From: Moniliella sp. 'wahieum'
Lineage: Eukaryota
Direction: 5' to 3'
Length of the DNA: 64,000 nt
Assembly: GCA_003971905.1 (NCBI GenBank)
Contig: RSEE01000007.1
Coordinates: 992,001 to 1,056,000, forward strand
Position 1 is the first letter of the stretch, and each line of letters opens with the position of its first letter. The translations under genes were made by a program, and so were the position numbers. Below the pieces are notes generated by a model. The model saw nothing but the letters and a program-made list of their open reading frames with translations. It did not search any database and was not told the origin of the DNA. Below are positions 7,113 to 62,213 of the stretch, one piece after another.

Positions 7113-9590
7113 TGGACGTGTCGGCGAGGGGAGTATCGCTGTCACCAACGGGGGATGGGGGTGCGCCAGGCCCAGGACTACCGGATCAGCAGGGCTGCTG
7201 CAGTCGCGGGTTAGGATGCTGGGTTGCTGGTCGCTGTTGTGGGTGGGGGTCTGGGGGCGGGGGTCGGAGGGGGCAGAGAGCGGGCGGGAGGCGGATGAGG
7301 GGCTGCTGGGGGAGGAGGAGAGCTGAGAGCGAAGGCGGTGGCAAGGGGATGGGTGGGGGAGCGTGACAAGGAGGGAGGCGCGATGGGCCCCCGCACCAGG
7401 GCCGAGGGAGGGGGTGAAGGCGAGAGGGCGTGGGGGGGCTGACGGGGGAGAGAGAGGGGAGAGGGGGGGGGATGGGGGAGAGGGGGGTGTCTGTACTCCA
7501 TCCTCCGCATGGGCTGGACCGCGGAGAGGCGGGTGTGAGGGTGGTGAACGCCATGCGATCGGGGCAGGGAGCCGGGCGGCGGCGGTGGTGGGGGTGGTGG
7601 CGGGGGGGGGGGGAGGGAGGAGAGGGCGATGGGGAGCGCAGGAGGCGCAGATGGCGGTGAGGATGCTCCACCACGACCGGGGGGGCAGGATCGGCGTCCA
7701 CTTTCTCGACGTTGTTTGAGCCCACGAGGAGCCCAAGGAGATGCGTGATGCACACGCAGGATGCGTGATGTACAAGCACATGCAGGATGCGAGATGGCGC
7801 ATCACGCTTTCCGACGCATGAGCCTGCAGGGAGGCGTGACTGGCGGGGGGGCATGTAGGCATGCGGCCCGGCTGGCGCAGGGCCTGTGCATCGGCACAGT
7901 CGCCTACTGCTGCCGCCGGCCGCCGCCGCAGCCCGCGCCCTGGCGTGCGCTCCCACGCCTCGGGGCGGGCGTGTTGATTGAGGATGGGCGCAGCCCTCCA
8001 CACACTGCACGGCTGCCAGACGCCTCCTACGCGCATCGCGCCTGCACGGCGCCAGCCACGGCTGCACGCCCTGCCTACAACACACCCCCACCCGAGCCCA
8101 CGGGGCCACACAGAGGGCCGGGTGGCCAGCATGCCGCCACCCGGCAGCGCCTCGCTCTCCCCGAACCCCCGCCCATCCCCTGCATCGCTTGCATCGTCCC
8201 TGCATCCCCTGCATTCCATGCTTCCCCCAGCCATCTCCCACCACACACCCCGCCGCTCGTTCCAGCCGCGGGCATCGCGTAGACGCATTTCATCTAGCGC
8301 ATCGGGCCACCCGCCCCTGCCCCACCGCCATCAGTGCAGTATATACATCCGTGCCTTCTGTAGATCTTTCTCGCACCCTCGTAGCACCCTCAGCCGCTCT
8401 GGCGCTACGCGCCCACGCGCACTGAAGCCTCCAAAACGTCTCATCTTCCATCTTCCCCGTGCCTTGCACGTTCCACGCTCAACCGCAGCGCCATCCAACC
8501 CCAGCCAGCGTGGCAGTCCACACGTCTTGTTTCGGCTGTATTTATCTCCTCAGTTGTCCCGCCTGCGTCAGCCTCAGCCCTTGGCTCCCCCCCACTGCAT
8601 CGCCCTTCACCCCCCCCAACCCTTGTCAGCCTGACACCTGAGCGCCTGGGCCTGACTCAGCAGCGCAAGCTCGACCCTAGCTCAGCCCCAACCCCAGGGG
8701 CCCCACGACTGTGAGCGCCCGCCTGCCAGAGCGGGCGCAGCATCCCCTCTCTCGCCTCCACGGTCCCCCACTTTCACATCCAACGGGCATAGACTACTAG
8801 ACAACTGCCAAGTCCATACGGCCGAGAAGGTGATTTCATTGAAAAAGGTGGCTTTGGACTTACCACTGCACGCATCGCTCCTCTTCCCTCCTGACGCTCG
8901 GCTTCACCTGGGCCCTGCCCCTGGGCGGACCGTAGCGAGATAGAAAGCGCACAGTTCTGATCTTTCCTTAGGTGTAACGGTGGGTATACTAGCCTTTCTG
9001 GGCCTAAACGGTCCGTCGCTCTCACTTGCTCCTCCTTTTATATATGCTTGTCTACATGTGCCTATGGTGGCTTGGGCGTACCAGGCTGACTGATACCAAG
9101 CTCTGAAACCGCATGAAGATACATCTACTTCAAGTTTCGCTACCCGCTTCGACAGGCGCTGTGGCGTGCGGGACCCCGTCAAGACATACGCTCTCCGTTA
9201 TTCGCCTTTCTTCCTGGCGAACTGGAGCAACACTACTTTCTCCCATATTATTGCGCCGCCATGATTGCACGCGATTCGGCTTATATGGCAGCTTTCCAAT
9301 TGATCTTCCCAACAGGCAAAGGGAGATGATGCAGCCCCCGTGGTACCTTCGCTATCATCTCTATACTGTAACAATATCATTGACAGAGCTTAAGGCTGGG
9401 ACAAAGAAAGGCTGCGCCTTAACCGACCCGCTCATCCAGTGTGTATTGCTTGTTTCATGTTAGCACCAAACCCTTTAGGGAACTAGGGGAATCGCCAGTA
9501 GATCAGGAGCATCTGGTGCTCGCCATTCGCTTCCAAACCGGAGGCAGCACCCGTGGATACCATGGATGTGTTGTAGGCTACCAAGCGGTG

Positions 9591-18257: not shown

Positions 18258-19059
18258 GGCGAGCAGACGGAGGGTGGTGGTGGCAAGGGGGGAGGAGGAG
18301 GGGTGTGGCGCTGGGCTGAGTGGTGGTGCGGGTACGAAGGACAGAAACGTTTGCGGCAGGCGAGCAGGGTTGGTGCAAACCGCGCTTGTGCGCTTGGGCT
18401 GCGGGCGGCGGGCTGCTCTGCGGGCGTGCGGCCGCCTGCCGGGGTGCGGATTCACACAGCGTCAGCGCTCAGCCGCCGGCGGCAGGAGCGCACTGCCGCC
18501 GTGCCGGGGAGCGGCACTGGCGCGGCCGGGCGGCTGTGCTGTGAGAGCGTCATGCTGGGCACGCCGCCGCCCCGCGCAGCACTAGGCTGCACTGCCCCCG
18601 CCCTTCCCAGCAGAGGGGCAGTGTCGGGCAGCGCATCCTCCTCTGGCTCTGGGCAGGCCCACGTCATCGGTCCCTCATCGACCGCCATGGTGCCGGCCAC
18701 ACGAGCCCCACGTCGAAATCGGCGACAGATAGCCGCACCAATTGCCGCAGCATCGATCGTCCATGCTGCGATGGCTACGACGTCCTGACCTCAGGCTCAG
18801 GTCTCGTCCTGCTTCCGCCGGCCTCATGTGCCCACCACCCCATCCCGAGCGCCTAGCCGCCCCCAAACGCTCACGCTCAAAGTTTGCATGCAACGGCCGT
18901 GAATAAAAACCAGAGGGATATGTGACCAAACCATCTCCAACAACACGGGGCTCTTCAGCTGTGGCAGTATGTAGTCAGTTCTTTCCAACTATTACAGTGG
19001 CCAAACATTTTTTGGCCGTCGTGGTATCAGGAGATGGAGATGGAGATGGGGGGATGAGG

Positions 19060-22467: not shown

Positions 22468-22927
22468 AGCGAAGAGCTCTGGTCTAGTAGGGAAATGATG
22501 TTTCGACGCACAAAAGGAGGATGTACTGTTACATGTTACATTAGATCTTGTGGATCAATTCTTTGGCAACGGGACAATTTCGGCCAAACTTTTAAGCTTT
22601 CTCCACACTTCATCAGTTGCAGTGGCCATATAGTGATCGTAACCCTATTCCATCACCATGTGCTGTTGCGGCCGTTCTGGTTGAACGTTGCCATTAGAAA
22701 GCCACTCACCCGCTGGAGCGTTGTGGAGCAGGCTTTGGGGGTAGTGGGGTTTAAGTGGAGATCCACATGCAATATCCTCAGTCCCACTTCGAACTGCACG
22801 AATGCTAGGCAACGCAGGGCAATGCCTCGTCTCCTTTACCTTCTTTAAAGGGCACATCCCTCACAAGCTACTACTTGGCACCCCCACCCTCTCATCTCCC
22901 CTCTCCATCCTCCCCACGATCCACGAC

Positions 22928-23929
22928 ATGAAGCCCATCATCCCAACATTGGTCCTTGCTCTTCTCGGGAGTGCGATGGCCGCAGTGGCCCAGCCGCGGC
23001 AGACCCCCCCCGCCGGCTCGTTGGTGGTATCCAAGTCACCGTCAAGCGGGCAGTACGGAACGGTCCAGGCGGCTGTGAATGCGCTATCCACCACTTCAAC
23101 TCGTTCGCAGATGATTTTCATCGACGCCGGCACGTACGACGAGCAAGTGGTCATCCCTGCACTCAAAGGGCCGCTGGCCATCTACGGATCCACCTCCGAC
23201 ACTACCTCCTACGCGCAGAACAACGTAACCATCACCCACAACCTGTCACAGAAGAATGGCTTGAGCGACGATGAGACGGGGACGGTGCGGGTGCTGTCGC
23301 CAAACGTTGCACTGTACAATGTCGATGTGATCAATTCGTTTGGGCAAGGTTCACAAGCCATTGCCCTGTCCGCGCAGATGGATCGTTTTGGTTGCTACGG
23401 GTGTTCCATCCAAGGTTTCCAGGACACCCTCTTGGCCCAGAACGGCCGGCAAATTTACGCCCAAAGCTACATTGCTGGCGCAACGGACTTTATCTTTGGT
23501 CAGCACGGCCAGGCGGTCATCACTCAGTCCCACATCGGCGTACTGAACCAACCGCTGGGGTACATCACCGCCTCCGGCCGACCTGATGCGTCTGATCCTT
23601 CTTACTACCTCTACCTCATCACCAACTCACACATCGGGCCCGCCGATGGACAATCCGTCCGTCGCTGGCGCCTATTACCTTGGTCGTCCGTGGGGGCCTT
23701 ATGCCCAGGTCACCGTCCAGACACGGTGTTGGAGAACGTGATCAACAAAGCAGGGTATTCGGCTGCAGGCAAAGATACATCCAACACCAAGTTGGCCGAA
23801 TATGGCAATACTGGTGCCGGTGCGACCGGACCTCGGGCGTCGTTTGACCACCAGCTCTCAGCTGCTGTGGATATCGGCACAGTGCTGGGGTCTGACTATC
23901 AGACCTGGGTCGATAAGTCCTACCTCTAG
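22928..23929 (+). CDS. Secreted pectin methylesterase (CE8), intronless, compensating frameshifts at about 23660 and 23720
   Basis: Signal peptide MKPIIPTLVLALLGSAMA; GQYGTVQAAVNAL, GTYDEQV, QAIAL, GFQDTLLA, GATDFIFG; GAYYLGRPW in the shifted frame at 23667-23693; EYGNTGAGA. Confidence 0.95.
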   Translation: MKPIIPTLVLALLGSAMAAVAQPRQTPPAGSLVVSKSPSSGQYGTVQAAVNALSTTSTRSQMIFIDAGTYDEQVVIPALKGPLAIYGSTSDTTSYAQNNVTITHNLSQKNGLSDDETGTVRVLSPNVALYNVDVINSFGQGSQAIALSAQMDRFGCYGCSIQGFQDTLLAQNGRQIYAQSYIAGATDFIFGQHGQAVITQSHIGVLNQPLGYITASGRPDASDPSYYLYLITNSHIGPADGQSVRRWRLLPWSSVGALCPGHRPDTVLENVINKAGYSAAGKDTSNTKLAEYGNTGAGATGPRASFDHQLSAAVDIGTVLGSDYQTWVDKSYL

Positions 23930-24918
23930 CCCTGCTTCATGTCAGACGGTATATCTTATTTGAACTACACTTTCCCCCACCTCAGATGAATCCATCTGCT
24001 CTTTCATTTGTCTGCAAAAACCTCCTCGATGTGTGGGTGTTTTTCGGACACACTTCTCCCCCCGGAAGATACATGGTTCCGACGGTAATAAGACTAGATG
24101 TCAGGGCCCAGTAGCAGAATATTGTACCTGCAAGAAGGGAATGCCAATATCGCCTATTCTTGTTTTCCGTATCCAGAGTTCACCTCTGACCTCTTAACCT
24201 CTGAGAAGAGAACGATGGCACACGATGGATGATGGAAAAGGGGGGATATACTGATACGCAGGGCCGCAACTGTAATTATAGCGAGATACCTCACCCCACA
24301 CACGGCATTTCAATGGAAACGGTAATGGCAAGTTCAAGGTGGGATATATCGGCGGGGGGCTGGAACAGATGAACTAGGCATCAGGATACAGAGAGAAGAT
24401 ACATTTATTGCTATACTCGTCTCCCTACTATGATGTATACCCTGTATAGCATACTTGCTATGTGGACAACTGTATGCCCAGCAGCACTTTCACGCGTATA
24501 TCACGGTCCCCGTAGGTAATCCGCCACTCCTATTACCTGCCGTTTCTTTCCTAGTCATTGTTCCTCTCCTCTACCAATAAATCAGTGCCTCATTCAGTAC
24601 TTGGTGCTACTCATCTTCTTCCGACTGTTAAACCCACGCCCTCATAAGCAAACCCAGCAGCTCGGTGGCTGTAATATCCGCCGCTCCTTGACCTTGAATT
24701 GAAATGAGGTGGAATCCAATTTGTAAACGTTCAAAAAGAATTTCACCTCGTTTCCCCAGCCAGATGTTAGGGTTTCTCCGCAATATGCGGCTGCTGCGGC
24801 ATCACACAGGGCTGGTACGCCGAATTATTTTCGTGGTCTGACCAATCGCAACGTCAGACCAACCTTCCCCTCCTCCACCGCACCCCAAGCCTCCCCGTCG
24901 ACTCGTCGCCGTCTCTCT

Positions 24919-25177
24919 GTACGTGCACGCACCCGTGTCCTCTTTCTCCGTCTGTGCGCGCGGTTTCATGCGCGCTCTCCTGTTGTTGCTCTTGCCGCTC
25001 GGCACTCATCGGGGCTAAACGAGATGGAGTTGGGACCGCCAGTCAAGACACCTGGTTGGAGACTGCCAGGCGCTTCCACACCATTTTTGAGATGCCGAGC
25101 GGCATTGCACACCCACAACGGAGAAATACGTTTTTGTTTCTTACCGTTACTAACGGTTCCTCGCCCGTTTCATCCAG
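24919..25177 (+). other. Putative 5'UTR intron of RPS29 (259 nt) containing a stem-forming inverted repeat
   Basis: GTACGT donor at 24919, TACTAAC branch at 25148-25154, CAG acceptor ending 25177, 12 nt before the ATG; 24993-25004 and 25093-25104 are exact reverse complements. Confidence 0.65.
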
Positions 25178-25189
25178 ACTACATCCACC

Positions 25190-25424
25190 ATGGCGCACGC
25201 TAACGTTTGGTTCTCTCACCCCCGCAAGCACGGCAAGGGCAGCCGCCAATGGTTCGTCCCCATCCCCATCCCCCCTTTTCCTTTCTCCTTCTTGTTGCTG
25301 ACTCCGATAATGTAGCCGCGTCTGCGCCAACCAGGGCGGTATCATCCGCAAGTACGGTTTGGACATTTGCCGCCAGTGCTTCCGTGAGAAGGCGGCCGCG
25401 ATTGGCTTCGCCAAGTACCGTTAA
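25190..25424 (+). CDS. RPS29: 40S ribosomal protein S29 (uS14), 56 aa, intron 25252-25315
   Basis: Spliced protein [56 protein letters not shown] with zinc-binding cysteines; absent from the ORF track because of size and intron. Confidence 0.98.
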
Positions 25425-34979: not shown

Positions 34980-37900
34980 ATGGATGAACTTGACGAACGT
35001 GGGGCATCCGAAATGCTCGGGGGCCTTGGCCTGGGCCAGTGTTGCGCGAGCTCGGCGTCGCCGACGAGGGGTCGTCCGAGGCGATGCACAAGCTCGGGCT
35101 GGCCCAACACTCGGTCTTGCAAGCATCGACCATCTACAATGACAACTTTGAGGACGACGACGGCGGTGTTCCTGGCCCGAGATGACTGAGGAGGAAAAAG
35201 CGGCTCGCGCCGAGGAGCAGGCCGAGGCGGAAAAGTATTATCGTCTTGGTGCCGCTTCGCTGCTGCCACAACACAAGTCGGAGGAACAAATCTGGGGAGA
35301 AAAAGGAGAAAGCGCAGCTCGTTCTCGACGAACTCAAGCAATTGTTGCCTGAGTACAAACGCGATGCCGTGCTCGACTTTACCGAGCTGTTTACTGCACC
35401 GCGCCCGGCCAAGAAACGCAGGTTGGTCCCACCGAAGGGGTTTGGTGCGTATCTCATATCTTTCGCCCCTCTCTCTTCTTCCCCCCCTCCCCCCACTCGC
35501 CACTAGCTAACACTCCTTCAGGTTTGGCCCCTCCTCCAGCCGTGCCCTTGGAGCAGCGACAGGAGGTGTCGCGGTATCATCCAGATGTGACGGTGCGCAG
35601 CAGTTTCAGACTTGGTGGAGAAATTCAAAACGACGTCGGGCCGGCCTGCGGCGGGGTGGTGGACAGTTGCAGGAAGAACTGTTGGACCCTTCTTTGTCGA
35701 CGGAAGGATGGAACGTCCAAGCGTGGACTGTAGCCGAGGGCGACTTTTTCCGCAAGGCTGCCACCCTCACTGACGACTTCGATTGGGACGACGCGATTCG
35801 GTGGCACGCCGAACTCAAACCCAAGGGGCCCACACAGTTTTACTTTGACCTGAACGATGACCAAATGGTGTTTGAAGAGGTGACGCCGGATGCGGCAAGT
35901 TCCCAGGTCTCACACCCCTCTGCCCGTGCGACACGTTCTGCAGCCACTTGAACCCACTCAACTTGTCGAACGATCGGTTCTATGAGATCCCAAGAGAGCA
36001 TCGGCAAAAGGCGGCAGACTTTGGGTCAATTGGTTGTCCAGCACGCTCGTCCTGCTGCCCACCTTCAGCTGCCATTCTACAAGACGCGTTTGATCCAGGC
36101 GGAGCTGAATTCGTTCCATCGTCCTCACATCCAATTCCCCACCAACATTGTCATCCCGTTCAATAAGGTCCAGTCCAACGGAAGGACCGGCTTAAGAAAG
36201 CCAAGGGAAGGATGCGTTTGACGTGTTCCACTCGACCAGCGACCTGAGTCTGAAGGATACGAGCTCGTTTGTGTTGTACGAGTACTCAGAGGAGCACCCG
36301 CCCGTCCTGTCCAACTATGGTATGGGCCACATTCTCGTCAACTACTTCCGTAAGAAGAGTGCCAAGGAAGAAACCATCCCGCGTGCCGACTTGGGAGACA
36401 TTTGTGTTGGAACCACAAGACGAATCGCCGTTCAGGGGATTTGGGCAGGTGGAGCCAGGACAGATGCAGCCAACGCTGTACAACAATATGATCCGTGCCC
36501 CACTCTTCCCCCACAAGCCCCAGCCCACGACTTTCTCTTGATCCGCAACACCAACAAGGACCAAGTCACGTACCATTTGCGCAACATTCAGCATGCGTTT
36601 GTTGTCGGCCAGCAGTTCCCCATTGTCCAAATCCCAGGACCGCATGCACGCTTGGCCTCAACCTGATCAAAACCCGTCTCCACATGATTACCCACAAACT
36701 CATCCAGCGCAGCAAGGGTCATCGGATCAAGATGCATCGTGTGATGCGCTACTTCCCGATTACAACGGGTTGCAGATGCGCCAGCGACTTCGTGAGTTTA
36801 TGGAGTACAACCGTAAAGCTGGTGATCCCGATCAAGGCTTTTGGAAATTGATGCCGGGAACGCCGGTGCCAGAGGAGGGTGCGTTGTAAACAGCTGCCGC
36901 CGGAACATATGGTGCTGTGCGAGAGCATGCAGCTGGCCAGCAACGGCTGGTGGACTTGGGTCTCCTGAAATTGGGCGACGACGCAAATGAAGACGAAGAG
37001 TCGGGCGAAGGGAACGAGGTGGAGCAGTCGGTGGCGCCTTGGTTGTTGAGCAAGAACTTTTTGAATGGTGCGTCGGGTAAGGCGATGCTGGCACTTCATG
37101 GAGAAGGTGATCCGTCGGGACGCGGCGAGGCGTTCAGTTTCATTCGTGTGTCGATGAAGGAGATTTTCATTGCGGCGGGCGAGGATCCGTTGGAAAAGCG
37201 GGCAGCAATGGAGGCCGAAGCGATGAGCAAGTCGGGCCACCGATACAATGTGGCGGAACAACAGCAAATCTATCGCGCGGAAATCAACCGCATCTGGGAG
37301 GCGCAACGGCGTGCGCTCAGCGCGCCTAAGCCACCCAAAATCACCCGTCGCGACTTGGTCCCCCTCCACCGTGCTGTGCGCGCATACGAACAGGAAATTG
37401 TGGCCAACCAAGAAGCTCGGGAGGACGAGGCAGTCTCTGCTCCGCCCACGAACCACGATCGGTACGAGGGCAAGATCCTTCGCATTCGCCGCTTGGTCGA
37501 TGGGGAGTGGCGCACCGAGTATGTGCGGGACCGGTCGACGATGGAGATTACCTCCGGCAGCGGCAGACCCTGTTGGATGCCCAGATGGAGACGGAACAAC
37601 TGGCTCCGACGGGCGATGCAGTGTTGGATGCTGCGCGGCAGAAACGATTGCGCAGGCGATTGCTCATCTCAAGAAATGCCAGGACCGTCGGATGCAACGC
37701 AAACAAGCCCAAGCGGCCTCGGCGGGGAAAACATTGGAGATCAACTTGCACAAGGCGGCTACCAAACGACTTGTGGCCGGTGTGGCCAAGTGGGCCATAT
37801 GGCCACCAACACTTCGTGCCCCTTGTTCAATAAGGTTCCGCGGCCCCTGCTTCGGCGCTGCAGCGGCAGCAGACGCCAACATGTCCTTGACCAACATGCC

Positions 37901-38054
37901 CGTTGGCTTGGGCTCTGCCAACCCCTTTGCTTCCTCCTCGACGGTTAACATTCGTGGCCCGGCCGGTTCGCCCCTGGCGCAGCTCGCAGCCCCGTCGCCT
38001 CCGCCTCCTCGCCTCCGCCTCCGCCCCCACCCTTGGCCGGTGGACCCAAGTTGA
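34980..38054 (+). CDS. TAF1: TFIID subunit 1, fungal type without bromodomains (intron 35445-35521; multiple frameshifts; 3' end approximate)
   Basis: FDLNDDQMVFE, LNLSNDRFYE, DLSLKDTSSFVLYEYSEEHPPVLSNYGMG, LYNNMIRAPLFPH, QMRQRLREFMEY, APWLLSKNF, LHGEGDPSGRGEAFSFIRVSMK, HRYNVAEQQ, zinc knuckle CGRCGQVGHMATNTSCP. Confidence 0.96.
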
Positions 38055-45510: not shown

Positions 45511-48500
45511 TTAGAGCAATGCTTGCCACCCTGTTCTCAGACGCCGTCAGTACTCTGTCTTCTTCAAAAAGCCGATGACAACATACCGGAGAAAAGTACG
45601 GCCAAGTTTTGATCCAAGCGCGCCTGCTGTATCAGCTCGTTGACAGAGTATTCCACGCTCAGACTGGTGGACAGCTTGCTCAATACCGCAGCCAACGCTC
45701 GGTCAGCCGCCAACTCGGCTGTCGACGTGACTGCCAACTTTCCTACGCCCACGTCGGACACAGAAGCCGTTGATGCCCATGGTGCAGCGCTCGTCCGCCT
45801 GGACCGACGTCGCCCACGGGCATCCAAGTCTGGTTCGTCTTGTAGCTGTTGCAAGGCCTCAGGCCCAGCACCGTTAACAATCAAGTTTTCTCTCCGCTCG
45901 TTCTGCAATACCTTGACTGGGTTGGAGGTCCATGTGAACAAAGGGTCGTATTTGAACACCTCAAGGATAGTCTTGATCAGCTCCGTTCCCTGGCGCAGAA
46001 CACGTAAGGTTTCCTGGCTGCATTGGCGGAAGGCTCCGTCCACCCCGGGCAAACCCAGCCCATCAACCATGTCCCTCGTCAGCCGGAAGGGGACTGTCTC
46101 AGGGAAGCGCAAAAGTTTTCCCTGGTTGAAAGCCACCCCAAAATCGATGTGCACCAGCTCGCCCCCATTCATGTCAATCAAGATGTTGGACACGTGCCGA
46201 TCTCCGATACCCAGCACATGTCCCACAATCGAGGTGGTAGCCAAGCTACGCGAGTAGGCCAAGCGACTGGCGAACCATGCCATGGGCTCCTTGAATGTGT
46301 CTGTGAAAAAGTGACGAAATACAGGAGGAGGCGTTTGGCACAATCCCTGTACACTTTGATCCGCTTCTCGGGCTCGTACGCCATTGCCTTGTGGATCGCC
46401 TGGCGACCGTCCGAAGGGGTCATTTCCTTTTTCCCAGGATTGTGATATGCGAAGAAGAGGTTAACTTTCCGTCCAGGCAACGGACAGAGAGGGAACATAC
46501 TGTATGTGGAGGTTGGTCAAGACTCCGTAAAGTGGTTGGGTATTGTCTACAAACTGAAGCAGGCCCCATCGTTCTCCCAAGGGTCGGACGATGTATGTTC
46601 GAATTCTCAGCTTGCGAGGGCGGGTGCGAGCGTCCTTGATGAGAAGACGGTTTACTAAACGGAAGACTTGTTGCATTAAAGCATCTTGGCGAAGGTCGTC
46701 CTTGTCCTTGAAGAGTTGCTTGTAGAACTTGCCGTCGCTCCCGACACACGTGACGATCTTGGGAAGGTGCACGCCACCTGAGGTGGTAAAAGTGGGCAAG
46801 TAGGAATGAATCGAGACAAACTTGGCATATCGCCCCGTCTTGTCGATAGGGACTTCGACCGTGGCAACAGGTGCGTCCATTTCACGCAGCCCTGACAGCC
46901 GAATCTCACTTGGCTTAGGCATCCGCAGTTCCCCCTTCTTGATCGCACCACCAGAGTAATACTTCGATCCTTGTGAGCGAAGATTATATTGTGCCCACTC
47001 CACGTACGCGTCACACGCGAGCGCCATTGCCGACAACTGAGCTTGCCGTTGCGGTTCGGGGTGCACCATAAGTTGCCCCCAAATATCGTCCGCTTCCGCG
47101 GCTCGCAAGAGCTGAGAGAGCGACCCCTTGGCTCTGCAGTGATTGAGCCATCCCATTTCGACGGAATTTCCATTGCCGCCTCGCCATTCTCCATTCCCAC
47201 ACTGCGCATGGCATAGAGAGCGTAGAGTGTCTGGAAGGGGTGGTCTCGACACATGCGGTACATAGTCTGGCGGATGAGGGCATGGAAGACGTCCCTGGTG
47301 TTGGGCTGAGTGGATGAGGTACTACTCAGACGGGCCGAGAATTGATGGGCCAGCTCGACAAACTTCCACGAGGGAATCTCCTCCAACACACTCTCGAGCG
47401 TCTCATTGAGCCGCTGGTCGTCGGCATGCTCAAACCAAAGTGATGTAAATCGTAATAGCGACTCGTCGTACAGGTCCGACGTGATCACTGTCTGGGCAGA
47501 CATGATCATCGCATGCTTGAGGAGCTCGCGCTGGGTCGCTTCCCACGTAACCAGGCGACGCTTATCTTCGTTGAGCGTAATCTTGGCCTCGTTACGAGCA
47601 AGCATGAGCGTGCGTAATTCGTCTTCATCCATCTGCGACTTGTTCAGTGCTTCGTTCTGAGCCAATTCCTCCGTTCGCTTGGAAATGAACGACTGCAGCT
47701 GACGCGCATTGGTGTCCGTCTGACCGCGCTTGTACTGGCTAAAGGCGAATGAGGCAAAGCGATGGTAAATGAGCGACTGCGCCTGAGGGTCCAGCCCTCC
47801 GCGTTCAATATACCCGATCGCCTTGACAAAGTACTCCTCCTTGATTACTGACGGCTGCTCTGACCTTGCCTCCGAATGCCACATGGCCTTTTCAATCTGT
47901 CAGTATATCACTCGGCAAAGTGAAAGGGGGAAACGGGTTGGACGCACCATTTGCGTCAGAGCATCCCCTATCTGCTCTGCCGTCGCGTTGCTTGTCTTGG
48001 CGTCAAGGCTGGAGGCAAGAAATTTCTGGGCATCGGCATGTTGGCCATAAGCCCAGAGCATGTTGGCAAATTCGAGGGTGGAGGCGAACTGTTTCTCCAT
48101 CACCGCCTGCTCTAGCTGCTGTACAGTCTTGTTCATCGTCAGGCTCACTTGCAGTCGGTTCTGCTCCCGAGCCAAGCGCGAAATATCTCGACAGAGAGCA
48201 GACTCGACTTCCACAGCTCGGCGCACCTCCTCATCGTCCCATCCGCCAATCGACATCTTGACGCGCTGTGATCGGACACTCTGAATGAGTGAGCGGCGCA
48301 CTTGGGCCGTCTGTAATTGCGCTGCGGGCCTGAGAAAATGTCAGCGCTTCGGACTGAGGCAAGGGGGGAAGAGACGTACTCTATATCCTTGACCAGATCG
48401 ACCGCATCTGCGGCCAAATAGACCTTCTGCATCACACCGAGCGAGGCCATGGACAAAGGTTGGGCGCGTGACTCGATCAACCACCTCTGCACCTCACCTA

Positions 48501-55326: not shown

Positions 55327-55551
55327 CGTGGCAGGTGGACGGGTGTGGATGGCGGTGGGTGGATGGGCGGATGGGCGGCACTCTGCTGGCGGTGAGCCGC
55401 AGCGCTGGCCTGGCGTGGCCCCCACCGGGCACGGACATCTGCACATTTCAGATTCCGTGTTGCACCGACCGCGTGCGCGCCACTCGGCCTGGGCTGGGTG
55501 GTGCGCTGCCCCCGGCTCCTACCCACCGCCATCCCATCTCCCAGTCCGGCC

Positions 55552-60195: not shown

Positions 60196-60285
60196 TGACG
60201 AGAGTGGGATTCGAACCCACGCCCCGGAGGACTGCGGTTAGGAAGGAACCTGAACACAGCGCGTTAACCACTTCGCTATCTCGCC
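60196..60285 (-). tRNA. tRNA-Leu(CAG) with an 11-nt canonical intron (60238-60248)
   Basis: Reverse complement folds as GGCGAGA/TCTCGTC acceptor stem, GCG/CGC D stem, CTGTG/CGCAG anticodon stem with TT-CAG-G loop, extended variable arm, GTGGG-TTCGAAT-CCCAC T arm, A73 discriminator and TTTTTT Pol III terminator. Confidence 0.93.
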
Positions 60286-60805: not shown

Positions 60806-62213
60806 CTAAGGCAAGGCGGCCAAGTAGCGGAGGAGGTCAAGCGCGATCTGCGCACGTCCTGCATCAGGTACAATCCGCCGCACCAGGTCGTGCAGCGCTT
60901 GCCACGTCTCAGCATCGGGGGTGGCGCGGGCAACTGACGAAGGGGGCAATTGGTTGGCGGCTAGCAACGCCGCCAGACCAACTGCAGTCCCTAACCCACC
61001 ACCCCCTGGGATTTGCCCGAGTTGCCCGGGCACAGCTTGGACCGCAGGCATGCCCTGGGGTAAGGATGGCAGCCCAGATCCCAATCCGAGGCCGGGTAGT
61101 GGGAGGAAGATTGTTTGGTGGAGGTGTGGCAAGGGGACCGGGCAGTCCAAGACCGAGGAGCCAAGGCCGCGACCCCCCTGCCGACATACCCTGGGGGGAA
61201 GCCAGTGCTTGCACAAGAGTAGCCAAGGGTCCCTGGTTGGAGGAAGGCACTAAGGGGGTGGCGCGGATCCTTGGCTTGAACCACTAAATTGTGTTCCCAG
61301 AAACGCGGCGCTGGCCAGGGCGGCAAACATGGTATCCCCTCCCTGGGAGAAGTTGGGAGGAAATGAGGGCGGGACCGACTGGCGCGGCCTGGCGGACCAC
61401 AGGTCTTGAAGACTCGGTGGTAATGCACTGGGTCCACCGGTCGTGCTGTCTCGCATGCATTCTCCGCGGGTGGGGAAGATGCAGTGGCCAAAGGGTGGTG
61501 AGTAAGTGGAGAGCGAGATCGGCCACGTTGATCTGCTTCTGCTTCGCGCGGGGTAGGAGGGCCGACTGTGCTGGCCGAGGAGGACGAAGAGGCGAAAGAA
61601 GTGGTGGAGGAAGTACTGTTGGATCGCCCGGTGGCCTCGTTGCGTAAGGACTCGGATCGGGGTCTGCGTACGCCCGATGGCGCGACCCCGCCTGGGCAGC
61701 GACCGCATTCGCATGGTTGGCTTGGTTGAGGAACTTGCGACACCGATTGCGGCACGACAGGGCGGAGCGGCCCAAAGTGGGTCGCAATCTCTTTCCACTT
61801 GTTGCCCACCTCGGCATGAAGAGAGAGCAGTTCCTTGTCCTCCTCGCCACTCCATGGGCGGTCGGTGACACTGAGGACATTGAGGTATCGGGCGGCGCAC
61901 TGGTCGTCGGTGCGGCCGTCCATGTCCTGGGCAATGCGCCACCAGAGCTTGCCGTGCACGGCCATCAGGGCCTGCAAACGAGCATCCTCGTCAGGGCTCC
62001 AAGGGGTGCTGCGCTTAACGGATGGGTCCAGGCTATAAACCAGCGTTTGCGGCAGTTTTTGGCGCTGCGGCCGGGGAGCTGCTCGGCGAGTTCTTGCCAG
62101 CGGCTGCTTTTGCCGCGGGCAGTGCCGTACTGGGCAACGAGCGAACGGAGTTTATTGTCCTCGTCCTTGGACCAGGGAGTGTACTCGTCAAATGCGCGGC
62201 GGGTGGGGGCCAT
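60806..62213 (-). CDS. Myb-family DNA-binding protein with three N-terminal repeats (Bas1-like; frameshifted)
   Basis: PWSKDEDNKL..WQELAEQLPGRSAKNCRKRW; PWSPDEDARL..WWRIAQDMDGRTDDQCAARY; PWSGEEDKEL..GNKWKEIA. Confidence 0.88.

Follow-up and report, generated by a model that had tools for sequence, protein, structure and literature searches.

A predicted inverted-repeat stem in the long leader intron of a fungal RPS29 gene, and its resemblance to the zipper stems of yeast ribosomal-protein introns

The introns of fungal ribosomal-protein genes commonly host snoRNAs, and in yeast the genes RPL30 and RPS14B are among those whose introns hold autoregulatory structures. RPL7B, RPL18B and RPS22B are further autoregulated yeast ribosomal-protein genes in the accessible parts of the literature, and autoregulation through intron structures is likewise described for RPL22 and RPS9 (accessible text of PMC8047918). 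The described systems closest to the locus treated here are the zipper stems of Saccharomyces cerevisiae. According to the accessible text of PMC12350175, the 88 yeast introns that were probed include 32 with a called stem of this type, for the most part long introns of ribosomal-protein genes, and the linker window is 42-85 nt; the stems are poorly conserved in sequence, and some of them (e.g., that of RPL28) do not promote splicing. The same text counts eight snoRNA-bearing introns in S. cerevisiae.

RPS29, the gene that encodes ribosomal protein uS14, repeatedly has an intron in its leader. The accessible parts of the relevant sources place the 5'UTR intron of S. cerevisiae RPS29A at -493..-6 (PMC3226532) and describe a spliced 5'UTR intron in the RPS29A ortholog of C. 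parapsilosis (PMC3287387). They also report that deletion of the RPS29 intron lowers the fitness of yeast (PMC12461147) and that the expression of RPS29 under stress depends on the intron (PMC8047918). How the paralogs are regulated is 'still unexplored' according to a 2025 paper on Rps29, whose main text does not use the word intron. The accessible text of the zipper-stem study (PMC12350175) does not contain the name RPS29 and describes no structure for the intron of yeast RPS29A. Our search of the literature outside subscription journals and supplements returned no account of structure or of a non-coding RNA in an RPS29 leader intron.

The locus described here lies in a window of 64,000 nt (64 kb; 57.6% G+C) from the genome of the fungus Moniliella sp. 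'wahieum', and all coordinates refer to this window. The gene and its introns are on the + strand. Pfam Ribosomal_S14 matched the second coding exon (25317-25421, E 5e-9), and residues 22-56 of solved 56-residue uS14 chains aligned to the same segment (25317-25421, best E 1.1e-15); judged by these matches, the gene downstream of the leader intron is RPS29/uS14. Its protein begins with MAHANV. The first part of the coding sequence extends over 61 nt (25190-25250), from the ATG up to the GT of the coding intron, and is covered by contigs of all four sequencing runs considered below (X1-X4). The coding intron itself is 65 nt long (25251-25315, GT..AG), its joint (25250 to 25315) being found in three contigs of run X1 and in one each of X3 and X4. 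The second coding part, which carries the Pfam and uS14 chain matches, occupies 25316-25424 and includes the stop codon TAA (25422-25424).

Upstream of the coding sequence we delimit a 5'UTR spliceosomal intron of 259 nt (24919-25177). The earlier note had proposed a GTACGT donor, a TACTAAC branch site and a CAG acceptor 12 nt before the ATG, and all three signals are indeed present, at 24919-24924, 25148-25154 and 25175-25177, respectively, with the ATG at 25190. They are ordered and properly spaced, the branch A lying 24 nt ahead of the acceptor G. The intron had also been described as three to four times longer than the other introns of this DNA, a comparison that stands solely against the 65-nt coding intron of the same gene (25251-25315), since a heuristic scan of the window for the distribution of intron lengths proved too noisy and was discarded. 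The leader exon ends in a non-coding, pyrimidine-rich segment (24897-24918), of which 20 nt (24897-24916), plus two ambiguous positions, anchor the transcript contig described next. The true start of this exon probably lies further upstream than 24897.

Transcript evidence was drawn from the four runs, each with just a small share and none of them on record as RNA. Since contigs of X1, X3 and X4 skip the 65-nt coding intron at its GT..AG, these three runs carry spliced RNA of relatives. One 99-nt contig of run X1, from a relative that is 95-99% alike, joins 24916/24918 to 25179/25181 at a depth of 5.9. Its upstream anchor is 20 nt long and it skips 262 nt, against the 259 nt predicted, so that the joint is 3 nt off; the junction falls in a CTACTAC repeat, and 3 of the contig's 73 other positions disagree with the window. 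Because the shifted positions lack GT or AG, the offset probably reflects a small indel in the relative at one and the same splice site. No contig of the four runs lies on 24917-25164, which is evidence neither for nor against removal of the intron. The RNA junction check that had been proposed for this intron consequently yielded a single low-depth contig of a relative, which points weakly to a transcription start upstream of 24897 and to removal of the leader intron. Overall, the leader intron is probably real.

Inside the intron, the dodecamer TGCCGCTCGGCA (24993-25004) faces its exact reverse complement TGCCGAGCGGCA (25093-25104), as had been noticed earlier, and the fold contains the proposed extension in which CTCA (25005-25008) and TGAG (25088-25091) are paired beyond a 1-nt bulge. 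The stem also extends outward, by 3 bp (24987-24989 with 25107-25109) and then by 5-7 bp (24980-24986 with 25115-25121). The left arm (24980-25008) thereby comprises an outer helix of 7 bp, a step of 3 bp, the core of 12 bp and the inner 4 bp; the right arm occupies 25088-25121, and the two enclose a looped-out interior (25009-25087). The full stem of ~26 bp derives from an imperfect inverted repeat of ~29/34 nt (24980-25008 and 25088-25121). Computed duplex energies are -39.4 kcal/mol for the arms and -30.2 kcal/mol for the core 16 bp. Within 400 nt of pre-mRNA sequence, pair probabilities reach 0.89-1.0 in the core, 0.88-0.98 in the 3-bp step and 0.75 in the outer helix, and the stem is near-certain in the modelled folding ensemble. 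Two smaller hairpins are predicted on either side of it, a GC hairpin (GCGCGCG/UGCGCGC, 24956-24975) in the 5' linker (z -2.78; 2 of 200 shuffles as good) and an AGAAAUA/UGUUUCU hairpin (25122-25141) in the 3' linker.

Comparison with shuffled sequences sets this stability apart from chance. The 146-nt hairpin at 24978-25123 has a z score of -4.31, none of 200 shuffles folding as well, and the folding of the 24985-25110 region that the earlier note had recommended gave a similar value (z -4.24 for 24985-25112). The leader intron as a whole is less extreme (z about -2.5; 4 of 400 shuffles as stable). A perfect 12-bp inverted repeat arose in none of 300 dinucleotide shuffles of the intron. Within the 64-kb window, perfect 12-bp inverted repeats with arms within 200 nt number two, against ~0.6 by chance on our own estimate, and in a GC-normalised scan 23 of 3993 windows of 128 nt were as stable as the element or more so. 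Elsewhere in the window, a longer perfect inverted repeat of 14 bp is formed by GGATGGCGGTGGGT (55347-55360) and ACCCACCGCCATCC (55521-55534), 160 nt separating its arms. Among the 128-nt folds of the window, the most stable are located at 7825-7984 and 18369-18624, in DNA of 0.75-0.80 G+C within long ORFs that have no Pfam match.

The region enclosed by the arms behaves differently. Its fold (25005-25092) has a z score of -0.25, with 73 of 200 shuffles at least as stable; the sub-hairpin at 25023-25085 is hardly better (z -1.08; 29 of 200 shuffles as good). The further enclosed pairings to which attention had been drawn are therefore at chance level, and one of them, CCTGG/CCAGG, is not used in the minimum-energy fold of the sense strand. 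Since the interior is at chance level, the excess stability sits in the arms and there is no elaborate fold. In these models, two arms clamp an unremarkable loop, and the 'structured RNA element' originally suggested reduces to one strong stem. Stability concentrated in the arms is more readily expected of a clamp than of an elaborate functional fold. Note that the antisense strand of the hairpin folds less well than the sense strand (z -2.30 vs -4.31). This predicted asymmetry is only a weak hint of the RNA level, because most of the G-U pairs fall in the chance-level interior.

We tentatively prefer, without calling it probable, a reading in which the stem loops out part of the intron in the manner of a zipper and so shortens the effective stretch that separates the 5' splice site from the branch point. 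The two arms would pair in the pre-mRNA over ~26 bp, pinching off 80-140 nt of the leader intron as a side loop. A stem of -39 kcal/mol whose arms are transcribed within ~90-140 nt of each other should form, and the path from donor to branch point would then drop from ~229 nt to ~80-90 nt, near the size of the 65-nt coding intron of the gene. The stem's part would be passive and structural, helping splicing or at least offsetting the extra length, and it would not represent a separate RNA gene. It would probably go back to an inverted-repeat insertion or duplication, tolerated by virtue of folding on itself. The splice signals, one spliced contig and the computed stability and near-certainty of the stem are what the data show, whereas its formation in vivo, its help to splicing and its mode of origin are inferred.

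The lengths involved bring the locus close to the limits of the yeast class. With the composite stem, the base of which lies at 24980/25121, 55 nt remain past the donor box and 26 nt ahead of the branch box, a linker of 81 nt from box to box that requires the outer helix (P 0.75). Other ways of counting give ~91 nt, if one starts at the first base of the intron and stops at the branch A, or 68 + 43 = 111 nt, if only the core stem of 16 bp is considered. Measured against the zipper stems of yeast (Rangan et al. 2025), the box-to-box count of 81 nt is inside the 42-85 nt window and the counts of ~91 and 111 nt are outside it. Membership of the zipper-stem class is borderline, as it stands or falls with the outer helix (P 0.75) and the manner of counting.

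Two results on the fold itself speak against a zipper role. In minimum-energy folds, 133 of 400 shuffled introns brought the splice site and the branch site at least as close together, and this compaction, no better than that of shuffles, is the main evidence against selection for such a role. In addition, the branch box is predicted to be held in a 6-bp RNA hairpin (P about 0.75), which would hinder splicing and so counts against the zipper-like reading. This hairpin is formed by a 15-nt perfect palindrome, ACCGTTACTAACGGT (25143-25157), with pair probabilities of 0.5-0.76; the branch A at 25153 is predicted to pair with 25147 at a probability of 0.74.

The leader introns of other RPS29 genes provide a comparative view. 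A degenerate DNA pattern for WFSHPRK.GKG recovered six metagenome loci, all of them distant, with proteins that start MTHEAI or MTHDAI vs MAHANV in the window; four or five of the six appear to come from one species group. The pattern had no match in prokaryote genome contigs, and the 41-aa read-through ORF of exon 1, used as a query, yielded no candidate RPS29 relative. The stem element is absent from all six loci. A leader intron is clear in one of them alone (L005, a distant fungus), where it measures ~62 nt, with GTACGT at -93 and TACTAAT at -53, and has no such stem; it is uncertain in the other five. The short leader intron of L005 counts against the zipper-like reading. In four loci (L002, L003, L004 and L006), a region ~220 to 50 nt upstream of the ATG has flanks that are conserved between loci (…GTGTGTACGTACAG and AG|CCATATCTTCCC…), separated by a C/A-rich stretch of ~170 nt that differs between them. 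By its sequence this region looks like a longer leader intron of that fungal group; a canonical branch box was not found in L003, L004 or L006. In a contig of run X2, from another fungus, an intron ends directly at the RPS29 ATG.

A different explanation is that the stem has no function. A unit of 112-142 nt, either a foldback or MITE-like element or an inverted duplication made by template switching, may have landed in a formerly short intron and would persist there because intron sequence is weakly constrained. We regard this neutral insertion as a serious possibility, nearly as likely as the zipper-like reading. The excess stability lies entirely in terminal inverted-repeat arms that enclose a chance-level interior, which is the anatomy of foldback elements and MITEs; without the unit the intron would measure ~117-147 nt, closer to the leader intron of L005; perfect 12-bp inverted repeats within 200 nt are not rare in the window, as the pair found in 64 kb indicates; and the splice sites are brought together to no greater degree than in shuffles. 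Several findings pull the other way. The 64-kb window holds no second or partial copy of the intron sequence, and no clear target-site duplication borders either 24993-25104 or 24980-25121, the flanks sharing just TTGC, out of register. The better fold of the sense strand (z -4.31 vs -2.30 for the antisense) is a weak hint of an RNA-level asymmetry, and, whatever its origin, a stem of -39 kcal/mol would still alter the geometry of the pre-mRNA. The exact two-arm pattern had no match in prokaryote genome contigs or viral contigs, as expected.

The arms could also matter as DNA. Each 12-mer is palindromic at 10 of 12 positions, so that both copies represent the same site in double-stranded DNA, the near-palindrome TGCCG-NN-CGGCA. 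This candidate site has the form of an everted repeat, CCG-N2-CGG, a type to which zinc-cluster factors bind. The two arms might accordingly be two copies of an intronic enhancer site, the RNA stem being a by-product. The core GCCGNNCGGC occurs five times in the window against 2.4 expected, an enrichment that is not significant given that 12 of 100 shuffles reach five matches. Moreover, the complementarity of the arms goes past the palindromic core, into CTCA/TGAG and the outer 3 + 7 pairs, which independent sites would not need, and the central dinucleotides of the two copies are exact complements. We consider an origin of the stem as a by-product of DNA sites very improbable.

The region upstream of the leader intron has repeated sequences of its own. 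At 24834-24861, TGGTCTGAC / GTCAGACCA form a perfect inverted repeat of 9 bp with a 10-nt spacer. It overlaps a CCAAT (24842-24846) some 60-80 nt upstream of the end of the leader exon, and may be a promoter element of RPS29. TTAGGG is found at 24767-24772 (in GTTAGGGTTT), upstream of the gene; sites of the TTAGGG type are bound by Tbf1 in the ribosomal-protein promoters of many fungi. An imperfect inverted repeat at 24702-24753, in the promoter region, carries AAAYGAGRTGRA in both arms, and a third copy of this sequence lies at 25017-25028, within the loop of the leader intron. The three copies, all near RPS29, are the three matches to AAAYGAGRTGRA in 64 kb, against 0.01 expected; because the pattern was written after the copies had been seen, we draw no conclusion from the count. 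Matches to Rfam miRNA families at 24700-24779 are weak and fall far under the gathering scores.

In an autoregulatory switch, excess Rps29 or another factor would bind the stem or its junction, or would favour the branch-site hairpin, and so block splicing, and the retained intron would make the RPS29 mRNA unproductive. Such a scheme would be in keeping with the frequency of autoregulation through intron structures among yeast ribosomal-protein genes and with the position of the branch box inside a 6-bp hairpin made by a 15-nt perfect palindrome. With the intron retained, the mRNA would gain three ATGs ahead of the start (24968, 25024 and 25092), one of which (25024) opens a 59-codon ORF that runs past the RPS29 ATG and out of its frame, overlapping the start of the gene. 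Against it, no rival pairing came to light for the arms, whose own pairing has a probability of about 1.0; the interior, where a protein-binding junction would have to lie, is not unusually structured; and no report of RPS29 autoregulation was found in our literature search, within the scope given above. The hints are circumstantial and nothing specific supports the switch, which we hold to be unlikely. Still more doubtful, if slightly, is a two-part switch responding to the dosage of uS14, with the loop-out stem as enhancer and the 15-nt palindrome over TACTAAC as brake, in which Rps29 or a signal from 40S assembly would lead to retention and to exposure of the three upstream AUGs.

A stable non-coding RNA, snoRNA-like or otherwise processed, could also be released from the excised leader intron, a proposal to which the common hosting of snoRNAs by fungal ribosomal-protein introns, the stability of the hairpin (z -4.31) and what we judge to be the poor coverage of basidiomycete snoRNAs by Rfam lend some plausibility. 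The Rfam search that had been suggested found no family that matches 24919-25177, even with E values up to 10 admitted. At the gathering score, the whole window has a single match, a tRNA at 60196-60285, and none in the leader intron. Our scan for boxes bears out the earlier impression that clear C/D or H/ACA boxes are missing. The sense strand of the intron contains no CTGA and, allowing up to one mismatch, no TGATGA, and the antisense strand also lacks CTGA; ANANNA occurs at 25017 and 25078 alone, inside the hairpin and never in a hinge followed by ACA. The hinge at 24976-24992 contains no A and therefore cannot hold an H box. An ACA at 25115 sits 10 nt past the perfect 12-bp stem, so that the positions 14-16 nt upstream of it, where the pseudouridylation pocket belongs, are stem. 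A canonical box C/D or H/ACA snoRNA is unlikely, its defining boxes being absent and no Rfam family matching. With neither C/D boxes nor a usable H/ACA layout, with no Rfam match and with an interior that folds at chance level, the intron-encoded non-coding RNA that had been put forward as an alternative is disfavoured, and we give it very little credence in any form.

The remainder of the window contains other recognizable genes. These include a pectinesterase (22745-23929, +), a TAF1-like protein with DUF3591 (36890-37948, +), the C-terminus of a TEL1/ATM kinase with its FATC domain (45564-46460, -) and a Myb DNA-binding protein (60991-62151, -). The best named relatives of the TEL1/ATM fragment are basidiomycetes, at ~50% identity. 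The GC-rich fungus is probably a basidiomycete itself. Two Logan proteins are 81-84% identical to this piece, and closer relatives consequently exist in public reads. The Rfam tRNA match (60196-60285, -) is 90 nt long and scores 50.7 bits; it was not reported by ARAGORN and is probably an intron-bearing nuclear tRNA gene.

What the stem would mean depends on which reading holds. If it is a neutral foldback insertion, the locus illustrates ordinary intron turnover. If the stem aids or gates splicing, the zipper logic, described only in Saccharomyces, would extend to a distant fungus with short introns; and an aid to splicing would here act in RPS29, a gene whose intron matters for the fitness of yeast and whose regulation has been called unexplored. 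If the two-part switch were true, no autoregulatory element would have been described before it for RPS29/uS14, nor for a ribosomal-protein gene of basidiomycete type.

Set beside known systems, the locus shares something with each of them. Like the introns that encode C/D and H/ACA snoRNAs, the present intron belongs to a ribosomal-protein gene and the element is about the right size, but the defining boxes are absent. With MITEs and foldback elements it has in common the terminal inverted repeats, the short and plain interior and the total length of 112-142 nt; here, however, no target-site duplication is seen and 64 kb hold no other copy. The autoregulatory introns of RPL30, RPS14B, RPL22B, RPS9A/B, RPL7B, RPL18B and RPS22B, as far as the accessible accounts describe them, likewise place structured RNA near splice signals, and unproductive retention, predicted in our case, is common to both. 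Unlike these introns, the RPS29 leader intron has no protein-binding motif and no competing fold.

The leader introns of yeast RPS29A occur in the same gene and, in the accessible descriptions, likewise end a few nt before the ATG (at -13 here); that of yeast is also long for its genome. The zipper-stem introns of S. cerevisiae, such as those of RPS17B, RPL7A and RPS11A, differ in that our stem is a predicted one and comes from a different phylum and a genome of short introns. They resemble it in being long introns of ribosomal-protein genes whose stems need not be conserved in sequence (accessible text of PMC12350175), and the locus is best filed as one more case of this kind, already known, in which a stem clamps a long intron of a ribosomal-protein gene.
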